Positions 10,470-61,497 of a stretch of 64,000 nt of DNA are shown here, piece by piece. The stretch is from Patescibacteria group bacterium. Lineage in GTDB: Bacteria > Patescibacteriota > Microgenomatia > Daviesbacterales > UBA10151. Location: assembly GCA_943356485.1 (NCBI GenBank), contig CALRFD010000006.1:7450-71449 (forward strand). Reading direction: 5' to 3'. The notes under the pieces were generated by a model, which saw only the letters and a program-made list of their open reading frames with translations, did not search any database and had not been told where the DNA came from. The position numbers were made by a program, and so were the translations under genes. The first letter of the stretch is position 1. Every line of letters starts with the position of its first letter.

Positions 10470-10934
10470 ATGATTATTCTAAAACGACCGATTATAACTG
10501 AAAAATCAATGAGGCTTGCGTCCGCAGGACTCTATACTTTTGAGGTAGACAAAGACGCTACAAAGCCAATGGTTGCTCGAGCTGTGAAAGATAAATTTAA
10601 TGTGAGCGTTTTAAGCGTAAAAGTTATACGTATAAAGGGTCAAACAAAAACACAAAGAACAGTTCGGAAAAATTATAAAGCTAGTGATATTAAGAAAGCT
10701 TTGATTAAAGTGGGTATTGGTCAAAAAATAGCAATCTTTGAAACTCCAAAAGAAGAAGTAGTAGTTACAACAGCAGAAGGCGAGCCTATAATGCTTCGAG
10801 AAAAGAAAGATCTCTTAGGTAGAACCAAAGTAAAAGTTGAAAGAAGTCCTGCCCGCAATGCTTCGCAACGCGTTGCAGGTGGGGCAGTAGGGGCAGCTCC
10901 GACAACTCAAAGAAAGGTAATAACAGGGAAATAA
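10470..10934 (+). CDS. rplW: 50S ribosomal protein L23 (C-terminally extended)
   Basis: Typical L23 N-terminus; 154 aa versus ~95. Confidence 0.88.
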   Translation: MIILKRPIITEKSMRLASAGLYTFEVDKDATKPMVARAVKDKFNVSVLSVKVIRIKGQTKTQRTVRKNYKASDIKKALIKVGIGQKIAIFETPKEEVVVTTAEGEPIMLREKKDLLGRTKVKVERSPARNASQRVAGGAVGAAPTTQRKVITGK

Positions 10935-19307: not shown

Positions 19308-19834
19308 TGCGCAGAATTTTACTTATTGGTCCGCAAGGAAGCGGGAAGTCCACTCAAGCCGACTTACTGTCTCAATTTTTAAATATTCCAAAAATCTCTA
19401 CAGGGGATATTTTCAGAGATCTATCGAAGGAAAATAGTGAGCAGGCTGCAAAAGTAAAAGAGATTTTGGATCAAGGAAGATTGGTCGATGATACTCTAAC
19501 AGCCACAATTGTCAAAAATAGGCTGCAAGAAACAGATTGTCAGAATGGTTTTATAATGGATGGGTATCCAAGAAATATTCATCAGGTGCAGTTGTTCGAC
19601 CCAGGGTTTCAAAAGATAATTTATTTAAAAACCCCCAAAGAAGAATTACTTAAAAGGCTTATGGCAAGAGGTAGGGCGGATGATACAAGGGAGGCAATTA
19701 ACACCAGGTTGGATTTATATTTTAGTCAGACGCAACCCTTGCTAGATTATTATAAAAACCAGGGAATATTAGTGGAAGTTTCGGGAATAGGGGATGTAAG
19801 TCAAATACAAAATGAAATCAAGAAATCGATATGA
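19304..19834 (+). CDS. adk: adenylate kinase (short-lid type)
   Basis: P-loop [18 protein letters not shown]...; 176 aa. Confidence 0.88.
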
Positions 19835-20591
19835 ATTAAATTTAATGAGAAAAAGCGGGGAAATTGCAGCCGCGGCTTTGAAAAAAGCTATGGAATCTAT
19901 TAATATCGGTGTAACTGAGGTAGAAGTTGACAGGGCAGTTGAAAAAGAGATTTATCGACTGGGAGGGGATTTATCATATAAAACAGTTCCCGGGTATAAG
20001 TATGCAACCTGTATAACGGTGAATGAAGAAGTTGTGCATGGCATTCCGACTGAGAGAAAGTTTCAGGCAGGAGATTTAGTATCTGTAGATTTAGCGGTGA
20101 TGTATAAAGGCTGGCATACAGATTGTGCATGGAGTGTGTTAGTAAAGGGTAAAGGGGAAAGCGTTAAGGGGAAAGAATGGGGGGAGAAGAAGAAATTTTT
20201 GGAAGTAGGGCAACAGGCTCTGTGGGATGGAATAACTCAAGCTGTGGAAGGAAATAGAGTTGGGGATATCTCTTTTGCAATTCAGCAAAAAGTAGAAGAA
20301 GAGGGATATAAGGTGGTACATTCCTTAGTAGGTCATGGGGTTGGAAAGAGCTTACATGAAGATCCTGAGATACCGGGTTACGGAAAACCAGGAACAGGCT
20401 TGGTTTTAAAAGAAGGAATGACACTGGCAATAGAGGTCATCTATGCTAAAAGTTCGTCTGAAGTTGTTTTAGCTTCTGATGGTTGGACCTATCTTTCTAG
20501 TGATGGATCTTGGGGAGGGCTTTTTGAAATGAGTGTAATAGTGGGCAAAAAAGAAGCTGAAGTCTTAACCCGCCTGCCAAAGACTGGCTAG
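19812..20591 (+). CDS. map: methionine aminopeptidase type I; last codons (RLPKTG*) contributed by a GC-rich palindromic insert
   Basis: Pita-bread fold motifs (VHGIP, HSLVGHGVG); the 3' end overlaps repeat family A. Confidence 0.9.
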   Translation: MKSRNRYELNLMRKSGEIAAAALKKAMESINIGVTEVEVDRAVEKEIYRLGGDLSYKTVPGYKYATCITVNEEVVHGIPTERKFQAGDLVSVDLAVMYKGWHTDCAWSVLVKGKGESVKGKEWGEKKKFLEVGQQALWDGITQAVEGNRVGDISFAIQQKVEEEGYKVVHSLVGHGVGKSLHEDPEIPGYGKPGTGLVLKEGMTLAIEVIYAKSSSEVVLASDGWTYLSSDGSWGGLFEMSVIVGKKEAEVLTRLPKTG

Positions 20592-20640
20592 CCCGCTTGC
20601 CGAGCAAAGCGAGGCAGCCAGGGGCACTGGCGGGCAGGCA
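20568..20640. repeat. GC-rich palindromic element family A, long copy (CCCGCCTGCCAAAGACTGGC-[36 nt]-CACTGGCGGGCAGGCAG) at the map 3' end
   Basis: The 20-mer CCCGCCTGCCAAAGACTGGC is identical to 56558-56577; the terminal arms are inverted repeats; locally ~70% GC in a ~36% GC genome. Confidence 0.7.
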
Positions 20641-20696
20641 GATTGGAGAAAAATAGGTAATTAGATACGTCTAATTTAGCTTTGTAATTATGGGTT

Positions 20697-27439: not shown

Positions 27440-27596
27440 GTAAACATATGGTTTACTAGTACTGCATTAAGAGTGCCGCTTAAAAAGCGAGCCGGCAACC
27501 GTAAAGTTACGGTGCCAAATCCTTGAGAGAGGAAGATGCGCCCGCCTTTGGCGAGGAAACTTGAAAGCCTCTCTGATGAGAGGTTTTTTTGAATTT
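27440..27596 (+). ncRNA. SAM riboswitch (SAM-I/IV clan) with intrinsic-terminator expression platform
   Basis: Core motifs GAGUGCC ... GCCGGCAACC ... GGUGCCAAAUCC, then antiterminator GAGAGAGG, terminator CCTCTC-TGATG-AGAGG-T7 and the metK ATG. Confidence 0.7.
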
Positions 27597-30622: not shown

Positions 30623-31558
30623 TCATTTCTGTTTATTTCTGCTTAGAAAAATTACACCAAAAAACATTGGGACAAAGGCAAGCAATTGATATATAGTGGG
30701 AGTTTTTTGTAAAAGTATAAATGCAAAAATTAATGTTATTAAAGGAGCAATGCTGCCAAGGGCAGTTGCTTTCATTACACTGATTCTATGAATTCCCTCT
30801 ACCCAAAGAACTTTTGAAAGACCTAATACAAGTACACCGTTGATTAAGAGAAAAATCAAAGAGGTATTAAAACTGTCATAAGAAAAAGAATTCTGAAATA
30901 GGAATGCAAGAAAGAAAACTACGATAGAACTGAGGAAACTCCTAATAAAAAGAATAGTTTCGCTGCTTACTTTAGATCTTGCTCTTTTTTGATAAAAATT
31001 ACCAAATGGGGCAATAAACGCTCCGGTCAATACTAACAGATCACCAATTTGGAAACTGTGAATACTAGGATAGAAGATGATGACGACACCTATAACTATT
31101 AAAATAGCACCAACAATATGTTCTCTAGGCAGGTCATCTTTTTTCCAAACATGAAAATATAAGTAACTAAAAAATATTTCAGATAATGCAATAATACTGG
31201 CGTTTCCTGGACTGGTGTAACGTAATCCAAAAAAGAACAAAAGATAAAACAGAATACCCAGAATTGTGGTGGCAATAAGTATATCTGCTAAAGCAGAGGT
31301 ATTTCTTAACTCCTGCCATTTATGTTTATAAATAATGATTGAACCAAAGAAGATACAGGAAAATAAAGTACTAAATCCAAGTGAAATAAGAGAGGGTAGC
31401 TTGTTTTGCGACAGAGTTGTCATTATAGGAAATAATCCCCAAAGTATGGCTTCAAAAAAAATAAGAAGTTCCCCAACTCTGTCTTTACCGATTTTCATAT
31501 ATTGAGAGGTATAAGAAACAATGTCGGGGATGGGAGGATTAAACTCCCGACTCCGCAC
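30623..31558 (-). CDS. DMT-superfamily (EamA-like) transporter, 10 TM
   Basis: Two EamA-like repeats. The true start is probably the internal Met at ~31495 (MKIGKDRV...) because the 5' end of the track ORF overlaps a tRNA-like element. Confidence 0.6.
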   Translation of the reverse strand: MRSREFNPPIPDIVSYTSQYMKIGKDRVGELLIFFEAILWGLFPIMTTLSQNKLPSLISLGFSTLFSCIFFGSIIIYKHKWQELRNTSALADILIATTILGILFYLLFFFGLRYTSPGNASIIALSEIFFSYLYFHVWKKDDLPREHIVGAILIVIGVVIIFYPSIHSFQIGDLLVLTGAFIAPFGNFYQKRARSKVSSETILFIRSFLSSIVVFFLAFLFQNSFSYDSFNTSLIFLLINGVLVLGLSKVLWVEGIHRISVMKATALGSIAPLITLIFAFILLQKTPTIYQLLAFVPMFFGVIFLSRNKQK

Positions 31559-31594
31559 CCCCAGCGCGGCGTGTTATCACTATACTAATCCCCG
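31526..31594 (-). tRNA. tRNA-Pro(GGG)-like element with degenerate D-arm and non-canonical T-loop (possible pseudogene/remnant)
   Basis: Minus strand: CGGGGAU-UA-[no D stem]-CCGCG-CUGGGGG-UGCGG-AGUC-GGGAG-UUUAAUC-CUCCC-AUCCCCG. 7-bp acceptor, anticodon GGG with U33/R37; the 3' half resembles bacterial tRNA-Pro. Confidence 0.35.
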
Positions 31595-33581: not shown

Positions 33582-34289
33582 ATGCAACATTCATTTAGTC
33601 CTAAAAATTTTAGCTCACAGCAGTCACCTACAACTAATGATGAACCTGTGACTATTTCATCCGGAGGAGACCTGCCCGCTAGTGCTTCGCAACAAGCGAT
33701 GCAAGCGGGTTTAGCCAAAAGAGAAGGAATTTTAGAAGAAAGAGAAAGACAAATTGCTGAGAAACAAAGGTTAGTCGAAGAAAAGCTCGAAAGTTTAGAA
33801 AAACTTCGAAGAGACCTGGTAGAAAAATTAGAAAAAGTATCGAAATTTTCGGCGGAGGATGCTAAAAAGATTCTTTTAGAAAATCTGGACAAAGATTTAA
33901 GCGCAGAAATCTCCAAAAAGGTTAGAGAGGCAGAAAATGAAATAAAGTTGCAGGCTGATGATAAAGCAAAGAATATTTTAGCCGATGCAATAATACATGG
34001 AGTTACTGATTATGTTTCTGAATTCACGACTTCAAAAGTTAGACTTCCGGATGAGGATATGAAGGGTAAGATAATTGGAAAAGAAGGTAGAAATGTTCGT
34101 ACTTTTGAACAAGTTACGGGAGTTGACGTGGTAATGGATGATGAGATTCCGGATACTTTAATCCTATCCTCATTTGATCCTATTAGGAGGGAGATTGCTA
34201 AAGTCTCCCTAGAGAGATTAATTGAGGATGGCAGGATTCAACCGCAAAGAATAGAGGAAATCGTTGCAAAAACGCAAAACAGATATTAA
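33582..34289 (+). CDS. rny: ribonuclease Y, N-terminal part (coiled-coil + KH domain); broken from the HD part by a frameshift
   Basis: ...[70 protein letters not shown] matches the RNase Y KH region. Confidence 0.8.
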
Positions 34290-41901: not shown

Positions 41902-42865
41902 GAATAAAGTATTAGTTATTTTAGGTTCGACTGCAACAGGGAAGACGGATCTGGCTCTTCAACTTGCAGGTAAGTTTCAGGGTGAACTTATTTCTTGTGA
42001 CTCTAGACAGGTTTATAAGGATTTAGATTTAGGAACTGGTAAATTACCTGGCGGAAAAGTATCAGTCCAAAAGGGGATAGGCTTTTGGATTTTGGATGGA
42101 ATTAAAATTTGGATGTATGATGTGATAAATCCAAAGAGACAATACACAGTTTTTAATTATGTAAAAGATGCAACTTTAGCAATAGAAGAAATTCAAAAGA
42201 AAGGTAAATTACCAATAATAGTTGGTGGAACGGGTCTTTATCTTAAGGGATTACTGTATGGCTTTTCTAATTTGGAAATTCCGTTAGATAAAAAGCTGCG
42301 AAGTGATCTAAGCAAACTATCGTTGAATGAATTACAAAAAAAACTCCAAAATCTATCAATTAAAAAATGGGAGAGTTTAAATTTATCTGATCAGAAGAAT
42401 CCCAGAAGATTAGTTAGGGCAATAGAACTAGAGATTTCACCTCGGAGGAGTCCATCCGACCACCTCCGAGGTGGTATGGCAACAGATAACATTTTAAAAA
42501 TAGGGTTAAATGCACCGAAAGAAGTTTTGTACCAGAGGATTGATGAACGGGTGATTTCTAGAATTGAGCAAGGTATGGTAAATGAAGCAGGAAAACTATA
42601 TAAAGATGGACTAAGCTTGAAAAGAATGCGACAGCTGGGACTCGAATATGGAGTGCTGGCAGATTATCTCGAGAAAAAGATTGATGAGGACGATTTAGGT
42701 CAAATTATGCAGAGAAAGATTCATAATTATGCTAAACGGCAAATAACCTGGTTTAAAAAAGAACAAGATGTAAATTGGTTTGATATTACAGAAGAAAAAT
42801 ATTACAACGAGTTGGAAAAACTAGTGGCTAAATGGTATTATTCTTCTGATGCCTCGCAAGATTGA
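41900..42865 (+). CDS. miaA: tRNA dimethylallyltransferase; carries an in-frame palindromic insert
   Basis: P-loop ILGSTATGKTDLALQLA and CDSRQVYKDLDLGTGK typical of MiaA. Confidence 0.9.
   Translation: MNKVLVILGSTATGKTDLALQLAGKFQGELISCDSRQVYKDLDLGTGKLPGGKVSVQKGIGFWILDGIKIWMYDVINPKRQYTVFNYVKDATLAIEEIQKKGKLPIIVGGTGLYLKGLLYGFSNLEIPLDKKLRSDLSKLSLNELQKKLQNLSIKKWESLNLSDQKNPRRLVRAIELEISPRRSPSDHLRGGMATDNILKIGLNAPKEVLYQRIDERVISRIEQGMVNEAGKLYKDGLSLKRMRQLGLEYGVLADYLEKKIDEDDLGQIMQRKIHNYAKRQITWFKKEQDVNWFDITEEKYYNELEKLVAKWYYSSDASQD
42438..42474. repeat. GC-rich palindromic element family B (CACCTCGGAGG-N12-CCTCCGAGGTGG) in-frame inside miaA
   Basis: 11-bp perfect inverted-repeat arms identical to those at 54854-54909 in cca. 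Confidence 0.7.
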
Positions 42866-44279: not shown

Positions 44280-44598
44280 CCTAGGAAGCTAGTAAGCCAG
44301 ATTCTGTTATTAGATGATAATTTATCTAATGCTCTTGATTTCGATCGTATGGCGAACAGCCTGATCGGTTCTAAGATTGCAGCGGGGAGGATTGCCCCTC
44401 GCTACGCTCAGGATAAACCCTCTACATAACGAGTACCCATTAGCTTGGTAGTTTCACTTGGCGCAACCCAAATCTTCACTGTTGCTCTAAACTGGGTCTT
44501 ACGACCTCCGTCTTACAACGGACACCCTTGTTCTATGCTGTCTGGACTTTCCTGAGCGTACCGCATGGTACACCCTAATCATCCTTCTTCCTAGGCAG
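44280..44598 (-). ncRNA. rnpB: RNase P RNA (minimal bacterial type, ~320 nt)
   Basis: Minus strand: P1 CCUAGGAAG/CUUCCUAGG closes the ends; P3 hairpin GUACC-AUGC-GGUAC. P4 5' strand CAGGAAAGUCCAGAC pairs with 3' strand ACAGAAUCUGGCUUA; relative to E. coli GGAAAGUCCGGGC/ACAGAACCCGGCUUA the changes are compensatory. CAUAGAACAAGGGUGUCC and GUGAAACUACC resemble the M1 RNA P5/P10-12 regions. GC-rich island in an AT-rich spacer. Confidence 0.85.
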
Positions 44599-53750: not shown

Positions 53751-55132
53751 GATTCTAAATTCTCGATTCTAGCTAAAAGATAATCGCGATTATTTTTAGC
53801 TGAATTCTCTTGTACTTCCTCAAAAAGTTTTTGTAGCATTTCTCCCACTTTTCGTCCGGGTTTTATGTTTAAAGTTTCCATCACGTCTTTTCCGTTTACT
53901 TTTAGATCAGAGATAGAAAAAGGCTTTTTTAAAACCTCCTGTATTCTTTCTTTAAATTTTTCCATTCTCCAAGAGACTGCATTTTGTGTTCCTCCGCCCA
54001 GTCTATCTGCAACTCTGACTGCCATCATATCATCTATATTCTCTGTCCCTACATTTTTGATAAATCTGCGGATGGCTGAATCTGTTTGTTTCTCATCTAG
54101 GGTAAACATATGCCACCTTACTAACTTGTATAACTTATCAGTTTCTTTTTTAGACAGGTTGAATCGTCTGGCGATATTTAAAACAATTTTCCCGCCTACA
54201 AAATCATGGTTATAGAAAGTTACATTTTCATCTGCTTGAGTTTGAACGGTGTCCGGTTTACCTATATCATGAAGTAATGCAGCGAGCCGTACTAAAGGAT
54301 CAGAAGAAGGGCAGGTTTTTAAAGAAAGAAACGAATGCTCGCCAATATCATATATTCTATCGTGTTTTGGTCCTTCCTGTTGCAGTCCAAAACATCTTTC
54401 AAGTTCCGGTAATATAATCTGCAGAATCCCTGTTTCTCTAAGTTTAAGGATACCTTCATAATGATTTTCAGAGGCAAGGATTTTAAAAAGTTCATCCCTG
54501 ACTCTTTCGCTGGCAATATCTTTAATTAAGGTAACATTTTTTGCGATCGCATTTTTTGTTGCCATTTCAATTTCAAAGTTTAATTTTGCAGCAATCCTGA
54601 TAGCTCTGATAAGACGAAGAGCATCTTCCTGAAAGCGGGTATCAGGATTTCCTACGCATCGAATAATTTTATTTTTAATATCATTTTGACCCTTAAAGGG
54701 ATCAACTATTTTTTCATCAGAAGACAGAGCGATCGCATTTACTGTAAAGTCGCGCCTGGCTAAATCTTCCTCAATTTTATCTGTCCAGGAAACTTCCACT
54801 GGATGACGATGATCTTTATATATGCCTTCTTTCCGCATGGTTGTTATCTCATACACCTCGGAGGAGGGTTTACTCGAGAGTTCAACGGACTCACTCCCCT
54901 CCGAGGTGGTTTTTACTGGTATTCCAACTGTGCCAAATTTATTATCATTAAAGGCATCCGGGTATAGTTTTAAAATTTCCTCAGGTTTGGCATCAGTGGA
55001 AAAATCCCAATCAGAAACGGGTTTACCCATTAAAAGATCACGAACAGCTCCTCCAACAATATAAATTTGGAATTTTTCTTTTTCAAATTTTTCTAAAATA
55101 TTTCTTACTGCTTCAGGTAGTGTATAATTCAT
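53747..55132 (-). CDS. cca: CCA-adding tRNA nucleotidyltransferase with HD domain; carries an in-frame palindromic insert
   Basis: PolyA-pol head IVGGAVRDLLMGKPVSDWDFST and HD motif LLHDIGKP. Confidence 0.88.
   Translation of the reverse strand: MNYTLPEAVRNILEKFEKEKFQIYIVGGAVRDLLMGKPVSDWDFSTDAKPEEILKLYPDAFNDNKFGTVGIPVKTTSEGSESVELSSKPSSEVYEITTMRKEGIYKDHRHPVEVSWTDKIEEDLARRDFTVNAIALSSDEKIVDPFKGQNDIKNKIIRCVGNPDTRFQEDALRLIRAIRIAAKLNFEIEMATKNAIAKNVTLIKDIASERVRDELFKILASENHYEGILKLRETGILQIILPELERCFGLQQEGPKHDRIYDIGEHSFLSLKTCPSSDPLVRLAALLHDIGKPDTVQTQADENVTFYNHDFVGGKIVLNIARRFNLSKKETDKLYKLVRWHMFTLDEKQTDSAIRRFIKNVGTENIDDMMAVRVADRLGGGTQNAVSWRMEKFKERIQEVLKKPFSISDLKVNGKDVMETLNIKPGRKVGEMLQKLFEEVQENSAKNNRDYLLARIENLES
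54854..54909. repeat. GC-rich palindromic element family B (CACCTCGGAGG-N33-CCTCCGAGGTGG) in-frame inside cca
   Basis: Same 11-bp inverted-repeat arms as the miaA copy at 42438-42474. Confidence 0.7.
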
Positions 55133-55155: not shown

Positions 55156-56805
55156 ATGAAATGGAAAGTGGCTCCGAAATCTTCTGATGATATTGTAGAA
55201 CAAATATTAATAAATCGTGGAATAAAAACTTTGGAGGAACGTGAAGACTTTTTTAATCCTAAAATATCCGATTATGAAAAAGATATGCAGATACCAGGAA
55301 TTGAAAAAGCATTAGAAAGAATTAAAAAGGCGATAGAAGAAAAAGAGTTAATAATTGTTTTTGGAGATTATGATGTTGATGGGATCTCTGCCTGTGCAAT
55401 TTTATATAAAAGTTTAACTTCAATTGGAGCAAAGGTGCTACCCTATATTCCACACCGGGAAAAAGAAGGTTATGGTTTATCCAGACAAGGATTGGAATTT
55501 GCCAAAAGTTCCGGGGCACAAGTAGTAATCACTGTAGATAATGGAATTGTAGCAATAGAACAAGCAAAATTTGCAAAAACATTAGGGCTGGATTTAATAA
55601 TAACTGATCATCATCTGCCTTTGGATAAACTACCTGAGGCTTATGCCATAGTTCATTCTACCAAAATGTGTGGGGCAGCGGTGGCCTGGTGCTTGATAAA
55701 AGACTCAATAAGTAAAGACCTAGCAAAAGAGCTTCTGCAGTTTGTGGCCATTGCCACAGTTTGTGATTTAATCCCGCTAATTGGTTTAGGAAGAGCGTTT
55801 GTTTTTGAAGGGTTGAAGCTATTAAATAAAACTAAAAATTTAGGGCTAATTGAATTAATAAATGAATCAGGAATAAAAGGAGAGATCGGCTCCTTTGAGA
55901 TAGGGTATATATTAGGACCAAGATTAAATGCGATTGGCAGACTAGAGCATGCCATTGATGCTTTAAGACTGCTTTGTACAAAAGATTTAACCAAAGCCCG
56001 CAAATTAGCAAAAGTTTTATGTGAGGTCAATATCCAGCGGCAAACTCTAACTAAAACTGCCATAGAGGAAGCGAAATTATTAATTTCCAAAGATAAAAAG
56101 ATACATGTTTTATTCAGTAAGGATTGGGCATCAGGGATAATTGGACTAATTGCCGGCAAAATTGCTGAAGAATATTCTAGGCCGACAATTGCCATATCTG
56201 TTGGAGAAACCTTCTCTAAAGGTTCAGCCAGGTCAGTGGCTGGAGTTAATATTGTGGAGCTGATCAGGGAATTTTCTGATATCTTAGTTGACGTAGGTGG
56301 ACATCCGGGTGCAGCGGGATTTTCTATAGAAACAAAACATCTAGCAGTTTTTAAATCCAGAATAGAAAAAAGCGTTTTATCCCTACCGGATGGGGCAGAA
56401 CAGATTTTGGAAGTAGACGCACTAGTTGACACTAATCAATTAAACAAGAGTCTGGTGGAAAGTTTACAAAAATTTCAACCCTTTGGTTTTAAAAATCCCA
56501 GACCAATACTAATAACATATGGGGTAAGAATTTCAGATATAAAAACAGTGGGTCAAGCCCGCCTGCCAAAGACTGGCACTGTCGGGCAGGGCAAGCATTT
56601 AAAATTTAAAGTTTCCCCTCCTGTCATCCTGAGTGGAGCACAGCGAAGCGAAGGATCTATAGATTGTATTGCTTTTAATATGGGTCAACTGCAGGGTAGT
56701 CTGCAAAAAGCTCATGAGATTGATCTGGCATATACTCCAGAAATTGATAGCTATAATGGTTTTGAAAAACTGCAGTTAAAAATTAAAGATATAAAAATTA
56801 AATAA
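55156..56805 (+). CDS. recJ: single-stranded-DNA-specific exonuclease RecJ; carries an in-frame palindromic insert near the C-terminus
   Basis: DHH motifs (VFGDYDVDGISA, ITDHH) and DHHA1 domain; 549 aa. Confidence 0.88.
   Translation: MKWKVAPKSSDDIVEQILINRGIKTLEEREDFFNPKISDYEKDMQIPGIEKALERIKKAIEEKELIIVFGDYDVDGISACAILYKSLTSIGAKVLPYIPHREKEGYGLSRQGLEFAKSSGAQVVITVDNGIVAIEQAKFAKTLGLDLIITDHHLPLDKLPEAYAIVHSTKMCGAAVAWCLIKDSISKDLAKELLQFVAIATVCDLIPLIGLGRAFVFEGLKLLNKTKNLGLIELINESGIKGEIGSFEIGYILGPRLNAIGRLEHAIDALRLLCTKDLTKARKLAKVLCEVNIQRQTLTKTAIEEAKLLISKDKKIHVLFSKDWASGIIGLIAGKIAEEYSRPTIAISVGETFSKGSARSVAGVNIVELIREFSDILVDVGGHPGAAGFSIETKHLAVFKSRIEKSVLSLPDGAEQILEVDALVDTNQLNKSLVESLQKFQPFGFKNPRPILITYGVRISDIKTVGQARLPKTGTVGQGKHLKFKVSPPVILSGAQRSEGSIDCIAFNMGQLQGSLQKAHEIDLAYTPEIDSYNGFEKLQLKIKDIKIK
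56558..56590. repeat. GC-rich palindromic element family A, short copy (CCCGCCTGCCAAAGACTGGCACTGTCGGGCAGG) in-frame inside recJ
   Basis: 20-mer identical to the map 3' end (20568-20587); stem CCTGCC/GGCAGG; encodes ARLPKTGTVGQ. Confidence 0.7.
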
Positions 56806-57743: not shown

Positions 57744-57750
57744 CTCCTTT

Positions 57751-57838
57751 CATATTTTTTCCATAAAAAAACCTCCCATTTCGGGAGGTCTATTCCTTTC
57801 TCTTTTAGATTTTAATTAATCTAAAAAGACCTCCCTAA
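57751..57838 (-). repeat. 88-bp leader element, copy 1 (identical to 58505-58592): terminator/SD-sequestering hairpin + U7 + AUG mini-uORF, with upstream competing GGGAGG
   Basis: Exact 88/88 match. Minus strand reads UUAGGGAGGUCUUUUUAGAUUAAUUAAAAUCUAAAAGAGAAAGGAAUAGACCUCCCGAAAUGGGAGGUUUUUUUAUGG. Confidence 0.85.
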
Positions 57839-57952: not shown

Positions 57953-58507
57953 TTAAAAACAAGCAAATTGTCTTTCTAAATCTTTAATACTATTTATTCC
58001 AGGGACAACCCTGGGTTGTTTTCCTGTAGCAATTTGTTTAAAAGAAGATAGTGTTTCAGCTGAAGCTCTAATTAAATCTTGAACTAAAGCATCTGTAGAA
58101 AGTGGGTTACTATCACCATTTTCTCTTAATGCATCAATTACTTGTTCCGGTGTTGCTATTAGGCATGGCAGGTTACTAATACGAAATTTTCCAGAGTATC
58201 TTGCTCTATGATGACCATCAATAATAAATAATTGTATATTTTTGTTAGGAATAGCACAGACTAGAATAGGATTTTCATTCAAGTAGTTTATGCCTTGTTG
58301 AGCTAACCTTCGTTCTACCGAGGATCTTTTGCAACCGTCGTATTCCTCTCTAGTTTGAATTCCAAAAAGATGTATTCTTGGAATTAACAATCTAGGTGTC
58401 TTTGATTCTAAACTTTCTTTTAATTTATTCCCCTCTACGAATTGAAAGCTAGAGCAAGATAGCTGTCGTCTATCAATAATAGGTTTTTCCATTTCTAAAT
58501 AATTCAT
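57953..58507 (-). CDS. ParB/sulfiredoxin-fold (ParB-like nuclease domain) protein
   Basis: ...NPILVCAIPNKNIQLFIIDGHHRARYSGK... has the DGHHR-type motif of the ParB/Srx superfamily; 184 aa. Confidence 0.5.
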   Translation of the reverse strand: MNYLEMEKPIIDRRQLSCSSFQFVEGNKLKESLESKTPRLLIPRIHLFGIQTREEYDGCKRSSVERRLAQQGINYLNENPILVCAIPNKNIQLFIIDGHHRARYSGKFRISNLPCLIATPEQVIDALRENGDSNPLSTDALVQDLIRASAETLSSFKQIATGKQPRVVPGINSIKDLERQFACF

Positions 58508-58592
58508 ATTTTTTCCATAAAAAAACCTCCCATTTCGGGAGGTCTATTCCTTTCTCTTTTAGATTTTAATTAATCTAAAAAGACCTCCCTAA
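58505..58592 (-). repeat. 88-bp leader element, copy 2 (identical to 57751-57838); its uORF MEKI* overlaps the ATG of the ParB-like gene (ATGA)
   Basis: Exact duplicate; upstream promoter-like TTGACT-17-TACAAT at ~58700. Confidence 0.85.
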
Positions 58593-60144: not shown

Positions 60145-61497
60145 ATGCAATGGATGAAAGATCGGACATTAATTTTAGATTGTAAAAATGAAATTGGAAA
60201 GCAGGTCAATATTTATGGCTTTGTGCAGGTTAGGCGCGACCATGGCAAAATTCAGTTTTTAGATGTTTCAGACAGAACCGGAATTATGCAGGTTGTTTTG
60301 GGTGGGGGGAAGGGGACTGATATCAGGGCGCAAGATGTTGTTAAGATCTTAGGACAGGTTAACAAAAGGCCGGAGCATTTAGTTAATAAAAACATTCCAA
60401 CCGGTGAGATAGAAATTTACTCTGAAGAATTTGAAGTCTTATCAAAAGCTGAAGAGTTGCCTTTCGATATGGGGGGGAAGGATTTAAACCTGCAACTACC
60501 AACCTTATTAGACTTTAGGCCGCTAACTTTAAGACATCCAAAAGTTAAACAGATATTTAAAGTGCAAGAGGCTATTATTGATGGATTTCGAAGAACCTGC
60601 CAAAGTTTAGGTTGTACAGAAATAGTTGTTCCTACAATAGCTGCATCATCTACAGAAGGAGGAGCTGAAGTTTTTAAGTTAGATTACTTTGGTCACAAAG
60701 CCTTTATGACTCAAAGCCCCCAGCTTTACAAACAGATGCTAATTCCTGTATTTGAAAGAGTCTATACAATTTCTCATGCTTATCGTGCAGAGCCGTCTGT
60801 AACAACAAGACACCTGACAGAGGTTACTCAGATGGACTTAGAATTTGGATTTTGCGAATTTCCAGAGTTATTAGATCTTTTAGAAAAAGTTGCAACAGAC
60901 ACTTTGAAATATGCCGAAGATCAAAATGAAAAAGCTCTGAAGGAATTTGGTATAGAAAAAATAGCTTTTGGCTCGCCTCGTGGCGAAGCGGGGAGTATCC
61001 CCAGACTTACTTTAAGGGAAGCACAGGAGTTAATTTTAAAGGAATTTGGGCGGGATAATAGAAAGGAAAAAGATTTAACTCCGCAAGATGAGCTAGATTT
61101 ATGTAAGTGGGCTTTAGAAAAACATAATAGTGATTTTGTAACTGTGACCCACTTTCCTACAAAAGCTAAACCTTTTTATACAAAACCAGATCCAAAAGAT
61201 CCTGAATATTCCTTGAGCTATGATTTGTTATTTAGAGGTGTTGAAGTTTTGAGCGGTAGTCAGAGAATTAATGATTATAAGCAGTTAGTGGAGAGTATTA
61301 AATTAAGAGGTATGGATCCTAAGGAGTTTGAGTTATATCTGATGGCTTTCAAATTCGGAATGCCTCTTGAGGGTGGATTTTCATTTGGGTTGGAAAGATT
61401 AACTATGCATATGTTAAATTTAGCTAATGTTAGAGAAGCAAGTCTTTTTCCAAGAGACATGGAGAGGGTAGATATCAGGTTAAATAAAAGTTCCTAA
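60145..61497 (+). CDS. aspS: class IIb aminoacyl-tRNA synthetase, archaeal-type AspRS/AsnRS (~450 aa)
   Basis: N-terminal OB anticodon-binding domain; class II motifs (FRGVEVLSGSQR, GGFSFGLERL). Confidence 0.8.
   Translation: MQWMKDRTLILDCKNEIGKQVNIYGFVQVRRDHGKIQFLDVSDRTGIMQVVLGGGKGTDIRAQDVVKILGQVNKRPEHLVNKNIPTGEIEIYSEEFEVLSKAEELPFDMGGKDLNLQLPTLLDFRPLTLRHPKVKQIFKVQEAIIDGFRRTCQSLGCTEIVVPTIAASSTEGGAEVFKLDYFGHKAFMTQSPQLYKQMLIPVFERVYTISHAYRAEPSVTTRHLTEVTQMDLEFGFCEFPELLDLLEKVATDTLKYAEDQNEKALKEFGIEKIAFGSPRGEAGSIPRLTLREAQELILKEFGRDNRKEKDLTPQDELDLCKWALEKHNSDFVTVTHFPTKAKPFYTKPDPKDPEYSLSYDLLFRGVEVLSGSQRINDYKQLVESIKLRGMDPKEFELYLMAFKFGMPLEGGFSFGLERLTMHMLNLANVREASLFPRDMERVDIRLNKSS

Follow-up and report, generated by a model that had tools for sequence, protein, structure and literature searches.

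Palindromic elements within two tRNA-processing genes

The window analyzed here, that is, the whole stretch of 64,000 nucleotides taken from contig CALRFD010000006.1 of a Patescibacteria group bacterium (Daviesbacterales), encodes two enzymes of tRNA maturation, MiaA and Cca, and each of the two genes contains a copy of a short palindromic element that we call family B. Judged by its named homologs, the window comes from Candidatus Daviesbacteria (Microgenomates, Patescibacteria). As argued below, family B probably belongs with the repetitive extragenic palindromes (REPs) and their doublets (REPINs), which are linked to REP-associated tyrosine transposases (RAYTs). Both copies consist of perfectly complementary 11-nt arms, CACCTCGGAGG and CCTCCGAGGTG, around a spacer, giving elements of 36 bp (miaA) and 55 bp (cca; Table 1). 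A first-pass annotation of this DNA had reported perfect 11-bp arms at these places, and that description holds, as do the 33-nt spacer of cca and the in-frame translations, SPRRSPSDHLRGG in miaA and, on the minus strand, TTSEGSESVELSSKPSSEV in cca; the miaA spacer, given as 12 nt, measures 14 nt.

Table 1. Positions of the family B copies and of their host genes in the window
Feature	Position	Strand	Remarks
miaA, tRNA dimethylallyltransferase, 321 aa	41900..42865	+	element at residues ~180-192, peptide SPRRSPSDHLRGG
miaA copy, left arm CACCTCGGAGG	42438..42448	.	+ strand reads S-P-R-R
miaA copy, spacer AGTCCATCCGACCA, 14 nt	42449..42462	+	
miaA copy, right arm CCTCCGAGGTG	42463..42473		
miaA copy, right REP-like unit CCACCTCCGAGGTGG, 15-nt quasi-palindrome	42460..42474	.	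last 11-12 nt are the right arm
cca, class II CCA-adding enzyme with HD domain, 461 aa	53747..55132	-	element at residues ~75-93
cca copy, arm CACCTCGGAGG	54854..54864	.	
cca copy, spacer, 33 nt	54865..54897	-	contains an imperfect inner hairpin
cca copy, arm CCTCCGAGGTG	54898..54908	.	

With at most one mismatch allowed, the 11-nt arm is matched five times in the window versus an expectation of 0.23, and none of 100 dinucleotide-preserving shuffles of the window reached this count. Both elements are GC-rich islands in a genome of about 36% GC. The two doublets fold with energies of -25.3 and -28.3 kcal/mol as RNA and of about -15 and -14 kcal/mol as DNA (z about -4; equal stability in 0 of 200 shuffles), and a lone 15-nt unit can form, as DNA, a 6-bp stem with a 3-nt loop (-5.4 kcal/mol). 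Could such palindromes have arisen by chance, through codon usage, or as an artifact of assembly? The small copy number in the window is all that speaks for this explanation, to which we give practically no credence. It is refuted by the shuffles, by the occurrence of the same elements in independent assemblies from NCBI, ENA, JGI and Logan, and by the comparison of cca orthologs described below, and the GC-rich islands also stand against it.

Direct reading of the arms shows that all six frames are free of stop codons, and this makes in-frame residence within genes possible. Every family B arm in the window also carries a Shine-Dalgarno-like GGAGG or GAGGTG along with its complement, CCTCC or CACCTC, which resembles the 3' tail of 16S rRNA and pairs with GGAGG/GAGGTG in the hairpin. 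Neither the window copies nor the transposase-flanking units described below are adjoined by GTAG, CTAC, CGTC or GACG. Likewise, no direct repeat that would indicate a target-site duplication borders the two window copies, or the cca alleles when these are compared with empty sites, and no conserved target tetranucleotide lies beside the copies. In an Rfam scan of the whole window, the sole match at the gathering threshold was a tRNA (31524-31594, minus strand), and none was obtained for the element.

Loops encoded by the elements

The first-pass annotation had proposed locating the extra loops on structures of the two enzymes. In AlphaFold models of the hosts (mean pLDDT, the predicted local distance difference test score, 89 and 85), the element peptide is in each case the only internal segment with a pLDDT below 50. 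This segment lies between a helix and a strand in MiaA (residues 181-192), and in Cca (residues 76-90) it forms the turn between beta-strands 68-73 and 92-98. The elements are thus predicted to encode floppy, disordered surface loops.

The two sites differ in what the element has done to the length of the protein. In cca it is a true length insertion: alignment with solved CCA-adding enzymes leaves a 16-residue gap at the element, and the gene is 16 codons longer than its empty orthologs. In miaA there is no net gain. Here the element takes up a hypervariable linker bounded by RAIEL and ILKIGL, and because this linker is equally long in homologs that lack the element and in the MiaA of Bacillus, the element replaces a segment rather than adding a loop. 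The original view that both enzymes, otherwise conserved, had received insertions therefore stands for cca and fails for miaA.

Occupancy of the two sites among orthologs

The 120 closest homologs each of Cca and MiaA were surveyed. The Cca loop is expanded in 58 of them (11-46 residues), and family B peptide words can be recognized in 41 of these 58; in another 47 homologs the site is empty and consists of a uniform 8-residue turn between FGTVG and EITTMR. At the MiaA linker, recognizable family B peptides occur in 23 of the 120, and other homologs carry translations of different palindromic families there. Overall, about half of the cca orthologs lack family B, as do some 80% of those of miaA. 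The first-pass annotation had suspected a real palindromic family behaving like the Rickettsia palindromic elements (RPEs), and the absence from many orthologs agrees with this, as does the finding that the arms, far from being confined to these two genes, are widespread elsewhere.

At the DNA level, the palindrome is lacking at cca loci L121, L126, L128-130, L132, L133, L138, L141 and L147 (L numbers are our handles for the loci compared), and fills the same codon position in the window and at L122-125, L134, L136, L137, L148 and L149; solo arms occupy the site at L131 and L146. L122 carries the window type of cca element, with the inner hairpin perfect where the window's is imperfect, and has no element in miaA. 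When the cca genes of the window and L122 are compared, the element is the most conserved 55-nt segment (94.5% versus a gene mean of 74%). The element is conserved at the level of DNA rather than protein, even though the loop it encodes is predicted to be disordered.

On a 120-taxon neighbor-joining tree, cca switches between filled and empty at least 33 times, compared to 40 +/- 3 times for shuffled labels; the tree is a weak basis, since the sequences are about 70% identical. Filling of the Cca loop takes many forms and clusters weakly with phylogeny. Possible reasons for the uneven filling are a target preference, a small number of permissive sites combined with frequent transposition, or allelic recombination among Daviesbacteria.

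The family B palindrome is translated in differing frames, giving TSE.., HL.G or SPRR. These frame differences were at one point taken as proof of independent insertions, an argument that was dropped because of the L162 copy of miaA, in which arm 1 and the spacer are read in the +1 frame and a 1-nt insertion in arm 2 restores the original frame. Frames can evidently shift in place by compensating indels, and what remains of the argument is orientation, arm order and the parsimony count.

Perhaps the inserted peptides are themselves under selection, for example as loops for interaction or localization? As such a protein-level module would require, every insert keeps the frame, and many lineages retain the inserts. 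However, a single DNA sequence is translated in three frames at the same site, yielding the unrelated peptides TSEV.., HLRG.. and SPRR.., and the peptides add from 3 to about 38 residues. Moreover, the segments are predicted to be disordered, and what is conserved is the nucleotide sequence, its palindromy included. We regard selection of the peptides as highly improbable.

Several further repeats were seen in these two genes in other genomes. The cca gene of another Daviesbacterium has a second family B site, between ..FTINAIAL.. and ..DPF.. (L143:45-97; arms CACCTCCGAGGTG/CACCTCGGAGGTG, spacer 26 nt). In miaA, the family B spacer at L161:3764-3812 is 12 nt longer than that of the window (..FDFAQG..), possibly as a result of a nested insertion, and other palindromic families occupy the linker in other Daviesbacteria (P0128, P0131, P0133, P0166 and P0195; peptides SLRGAKRRGNLLRIS..SLIARN).

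Covariation of the arms and distribution of the family

When orthologous cca loci are compared, the arm is seen to be itself a 13-15-nt quasi-palindrome, (C)CACCT-NNN-AGGTG(G). The central triplets found at the cca site (CGG/CCG, CGA/TCG, GGA/TCC and GGG/CCC) are always paired between arms, both arm orders (G..C and C..G) and both orientations occur, and spacers range from 11 to 33 nt, one 12-nt spacer (AGTCAAAGCCCA) being present in both orientations. Complementarity is perfect in 19 of 22 distinct doublets from the Candidate Phyla Radiation (CPR), in which only the outer bases were anchored. Changes on both sides are found in 3 of 11 arm pairs, with 97% of cells paired, and the covariation score was reached in none of 500 shuffles. 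The triplets are also complementary in 12 of the 15 doublets that had not been selected by the search pattern. A surface-protein open reading frame (ORF) from a Patescibacteria metagenome-assembled genome (MAG; L048:1-1737) holds one full doublet and at least three more arms, all in frame, with both CGG/CCG and GGA/TCC represented.

Scanning one genome from each species with the pattern ACCTCGGAGG-N(5-35)-CCTCCGAGGT yielded at least 120 loci. The matches listed belong to Chloroflexota (chiefly Anaerolineae), Bacteroidota (Saprospiraceae among others), Cyanobacteria, Thiotrichaceae, Patescibacteria and a few further groups; the usual form outside the CPR is a 29-nt hairpin, AGACCTCGGAGGTYT-loop-ARACCTCCGAGGTCT, while CPR copies have C...G ends and 12-15-nt spacers with a common sequence. 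Six of the nine CPR copies among these matches lie in stop-free frames of at least 150 aa, and both window copies lie in long ORFs. The coding share of the pattern-scan copies is 67% in the CPR (n = 9, too few to conclude) and 53% in other phyla, versus 88-89% for random positions. In viral contigs, the CPR-type doublet had no matches and the general pattern had five; from this near-absence we conclude that the element is not phage-borne. Density is low, with two copies in the 64-kb window and, cca itself excluded, about two more in some 355 kb of flanking Daviesbacteria DNA.

The hosts are diverse. One Daviesbacteria genome (L062) has in-frame doublets in the genes for a polyprenyl synthase and HMG-CoA reductase, and in other Patescibacteria the element is in frame in PurL (Levybacteria), in an N-terminal extension of ribosomal protein L1 and in membrane or surface proteins. 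The arms and the 12-nt spacer AGTCAAAGCCCA recur, in either orientation, in genes and genomes that are unrelated, and the miaA spacer of the window, AGTCCATCCGACCA, has relatives in AGTCCATCCGGCCA at L098 (as the reverse complement) and in AGTCCCTTCGGGCCA from the miaA copy of L162. A literature search on the arm sequence, and on the CPR combined with palindrome, in-frame, RAYT or REPIN, found no report of the element.

That both hosts in the window act on tRNA had raised the question of coincidence as against an insertion-site preference or a shared function at the RNA level. It is a coincidence: the diversity of host genes in other Patescibacteria rules out a preference for tRNA genes. A more specific version of the functional idea is that the element serves tRNA maturation as RNA or DNA, the mRNA hairpin acting in regulation or autoregulation, for instance as a minihelix mimic to which the enzymes bind, or as a site of RNase processing. 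The high stability of the hairpins, the covariation that keeps their pairing, the recurrent occupation of both sites in Daviesbacteria, the conservation of the element above the rest of cca and the nature of the two window hosts would all fit. Nevertheless we consider such a function very unlikely, given that roughly half of the cca and 80% of the miaA orthologs do without the element, that L122 has the cca copy and not the miaA copy, that the hosts elsewhere include the synthase, reductase, PurL, L1 and surface-protein genes just listed, and that no Rfam family matches.

Tandem ACCTCSGAGGT palindromes with constant spacers were noted at L050, L065, L034, L100, L104 and L119, in Thiotrichaceae, Chloroflexia, a delta-proteobacterium, Myxococcota and Cyclobacteriaceae. 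The same contigs contain sister variants with the central triplets GAC/GTC, GCC/GGC, CAG/CTG and ACG/CGT.

RAYT-like transposase genes flanked by the arm

At a Saccharibacteria locus (L057), two hairpins bracket an ORF of 244 residues that matches the Pfam family Y1_Tnp above the gathering score (E = 1e-8) and whose sole NCBIfam match is REP-associated tyrosine transposase, below the cut-off (E = 3e-13). Homologous ORFs lie beside or near hairpins at Thermoflexia, Anaerolineae, Saprospiraceae and Bacteroidia loci, and the family is abundant in Microgenomates, including one protein labeled as Daviesbacteria. The motifs H88-F-H90 (HFH) and Y148 (RYIHLNP) are invariant in 20 homologs. When solved structures were searched, a profile gave weak matches to ISDra2 TnpA and E. 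coli TnpA-REP (4ER8; E 0.027), and a single sequence gave none. No insertion sequence (IS) ends and no tnpB were found.

Four transposase genes were picked purely by protein identity, and their flanks were then examined. The gene at L154, from a Microgenomates-type MAG, is preceded by CCACCTCGGAGGTGG-10 nt-CACCTCGGGA, 43 nt before the start, and followed by TCCCGAGGTG-9 nt-TCCACCTCCGAGGTG, 18-52 nt past the stop. These flanks contain the exact family B arm, inverted at the two ends of the gene, and the 13-nt core of the miaA unit CCACCTCCGAGGTGG is identical to the flanking sequence. The gene at L150 (Daviesbacteria) has CCACCTGGGGGGTGG ... CACCTAGGGA at one end and the inverse of this at the opposite end; here the unit differs by one base (CCACCTGGGGGGTGG/CCACCCCCCAGGTGG), the composite arrangement is that of L154, and a dispersed copy of the variant lies 2.8 kb off. 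The flanks at L155 (Woesebacteria) carry a degenerate variant, and those at L153, a second paralog from the L057 genome, a different palindrome.

Hairpins of the form ACCTCGGAGGT flank the transposase genes at L057, L106 and L051. This core, which holds GGAGG and CCTCC, is common to RAYT-linked palindromes of Chloroflexota, Bacteroidota, Cyanobacteria, Thiotrichaceae and Patescibacteria. The two RAYT-like paralogs of the Saccharibacteria assembly (L153:9880-10760 and L057:1684-2510) have their own palindromes, CACTTTCCGAAAGTG versus AACCTCGGAGGTT, each flanking its own gene, and at L057 the transposase ORF has taken up the hairpin at its C-terminus (..TSEVLWGDNLRGW..). A tblastx comparison of L154 and L150 with the window revealed no shared genes.

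How do these flanks bear on an explanation that needs no transposase? Family B might consist of orphan, selfish palindromes of the RPE type, inserted once each into the miaA and cca genes of an early Daviesbacterium and vertically inherited ever since. Hairpin-templated correction (template switching) would keep the arms complementary, compensating indels would shift the frames, and deletion would generate the empty alleles. In accord with this scheme, the L162 copy of miaA is clearly the same element as that of the window, its frame restored by a 1-nt insertion; spacers of the window and L161 differ by 12-nt indels; the solo arms at L131 and L146 resemble deletion products; and density outside the miaA and cca sites is very low. 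The scheme is nonetheless unlikely. Identical arms with an identical 12-nt spacer are found in unrelated genes from different classes of Patescibacteria, both orientations and both arm orders occur at one site, and the 33 or more state changes on the Cca tree must be set beside the 40 +/- 3 of random labels. Moreover, random deletions would not restore the uniform 8-residue empty loop of 47 of the 120 homologs, and the exact arm flanks RAYT-like genes.

Transposition and persistence in frame

Three points go beyond what the first-pass annotation had noted: the arm is itself quasi-palindromic, it flanks a RAYT-like gene, and in miaA the element has replaced a variable linker. Taking the evidence together, we think it probable that family B is a repeat of the REP/REPIN type, cognate to a RAYT-like Y1 transposase, which survives in essential genes only where the frame is kept and the loop is tolerated. 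It is because the arm flanks a RAYT-like Y1 gene that family B is placed with REP/REPIN and not among orphan RPE-like repeats.

The mechanism we propose is as follows. The basic unit would be the 13-15-nt quasi-palindrome, and two inverted units separated by a spacer of 4-33 nt would form a stable hairpin in single-stranded DNA or in RNA. The units would be the cognate sequences of the RAYT-like Y1 (HUH) transposase found in Microgenomates and other phyla, and this enzyme, acting on single-stranded hairpins, would spread, replace or excise doublets. In the gene-dense genomes of Patescibacteria, copies in essential genes would persist only if the net change in length is a multiple of three, the frame is free of stops and the peptide falls in a tolerant, disordered surface loop; the linker of miaA and the beta-hairpin turn of cca would be such tolerant sites. 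Mobilization of the elements by a transposase is our inference, as is the presence of such a gene in the genome from which the window comes.

A number of points weigh against this proposal. The GTAG/CGTC end tag of classical REPs is missing from family B, and classical REPs are far more abundant than the low density of copies seen here. There is no transposase gene within the 64-kb window, so that the link to RAYTs rests on motif homology in other genomes, and the transposase homologs match only NCBIfam REP_Tyr_transpos, with E values of 1e-12 to 1e-14 and scores of 48-54 bits versus a cut-off of 80 bits. In addition, hairpin-templated repair without a transposase could by itself keep the arms perfectly complementary, and random transposition does not obviously account for a single cca loop being filled in about half of the orthologs.

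There is also a different version, which we consider improbable. A RAYT-like/REP system might have a strong structural or sequence preference for a few loops of essential genes, or be kept there by selection, with copies repeatedly gained, flipped and exchanged across Daviesbacteria. On this account the cca beta-hairpin turn and the miaA linker may be sites where imprecise loss would be lethal. If so, the shared core would reflect either transfer of RAYTs across phyla or a conserved role of the hairpin at the level of the host, and the view of REPIN-RAYT systems as strictly extragenic, lineage-specific and vertically inherited would be contradicted.

If family B is indeed a repeat of the REP/REPIN type, odd GC-rich extra loops in conserved Patescibacteria proteins would be parasites or passengers at the DNA level rather than adaptive features of the proteins, with a bearing on annotation, alignment and structure prediction in the CPR. 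The range of REP/RAYT would extend to the CPR, and we found no published report of REP/RAYT in Patescibacteria. In a gene-dense genome such repeats could reside in frame inside essential genes, and this would join the REP/REPIN and RPE literatures. The recurrently filled cca loop, with its covarying variants, would offer a natural experiment on insertion, excision and hairpin maintenance, and the core common to several phyla would provide a test of purely vertical RAYT-REP inheritance.

Other repeats in the window

Another GC-rich palindromic family, probably the family A of the first-pass annotation, shares CCCGCCTGCCAAAGACTGGC (peptide ..RLPKTG..) and is present at 20564-20654 and 56544-56599. 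The first copy covers the 3' end of ORF 19812-20591 and continues into the spacer, and the second is in frame in a RecJ-like ORF (55156-56805) of 549 aa, versus about 524 aa in relatives. More GC-rich, partly palindromic islands lie at 56614-56652, 10843-10914, 33655-33711, 60960-61012, 44366-44421 and 27510-27574, most of them in frame in ORFs; examples are SPPVILSGAQRSE, within the RecJ-like gene, and RSPARNASQRVAGGAVGAAP, which ORF 10470-10934 carries at its C-terminus. The genome of the window thus seems to be generally given to palindromic repeats that lie in frame. Finally, two intergenic regions (57749-57838 and 58503-58592) share an exact 90-nt duplication with the hairpin GGGAGGTCT-35 nt-AGACCTCCC, which may serve both regions as a terminator or promoter module or be yet another repeat family.

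Comparison with known systems

Family B resembles transposable elements of the miniature inverted-repeat type (MITEs) such as Correia/CREE in being small, non-autonomous and hairpin-forming and in being able to lie in transcripts, and differs from them in having neither a target-site duplication nor terminal inverted repeats of the DDE type. In IS200/IS605 elements, Y1 HUH transposases recognize single-stranded hairpins. The transposase linked to family B belongs to the same Y1 HUH fold family, although family B lacks IS ends, tnpB and a conserved target tetranucleotide.

RPEs, reportedly described by Ogata and coworkers in 2000, are about 100-150 bp long and carry a CGTC tag. They are not known outside Rickettsia, and no transposase dedicated to them is known. 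Like RPEs, family B sits in frame in conserved and often essential genes of a small-genome bacterium, in surface segments that tolerate it. Unlike them, it measures 36-55 bp, has no CGTC tag and a host among the Daviesbacteria, and has an arm that matches the flanks of a RAYT-like gene; its sequence appears unrelated to theirs. RPEs are discussed in two earlier papers (PMC3733652; PMC10969869).

The REP/REPIN-RAYT systems, or REPtrons, of E. coli, Pseudomonas and Stenotrophomonas (PMC3116915; PMC3733652) provide the closest framework for our reading. REP doublets have been identified as the replicative unit (Bertels & Rainey 2011, PMC3116915), and the REPtron, the arrangement of REP and RAYT, has been described together with REPs that lie inside genes, among them orthologous recB genes in which different REPs occupy much the same site (PMC3733652). 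Family B departs from these systems in several ways: it has no GTAG or CGTC tag, a unit of only 13-15 nt and a low copy number; its copies are largely intragenic and in frame, whereas classical REPs are mainly extragenic; its hosts are Patescibacteria; its transposase falls below the NCBIfam equivalog cut-off; and the same core, ACCTCGGAGGT, is common to several phyla. The likenesses include the short palindromic units arranged in inverted doublets that form hairpins, the Y1/HUH transposase gene bracketed in related genomes by inverted copies of the unit, the sub-families with complementary changes in the stem, and the presence in one genome of a second RAYT with its own palindrome (L153 versus L057).

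In TIRtrons (TIRYT), long terminal inverted repeats lie on both sides of RAYT-like genes and also occur as dispersed families (Di Nocera et al. 2013, PMC3733652). The in-gene doublets of the window differ, being two inverted arms and not a full unit with a direct half unit. That latter arrangement is, however, the one seen at the transposase genes of L154 and L150, whose ends are composite inverted ends of ~35-40 nt (full unit, ~10 nt, half unit), and the dispersed composite copy at L150:3710-3747 completes the likeness.

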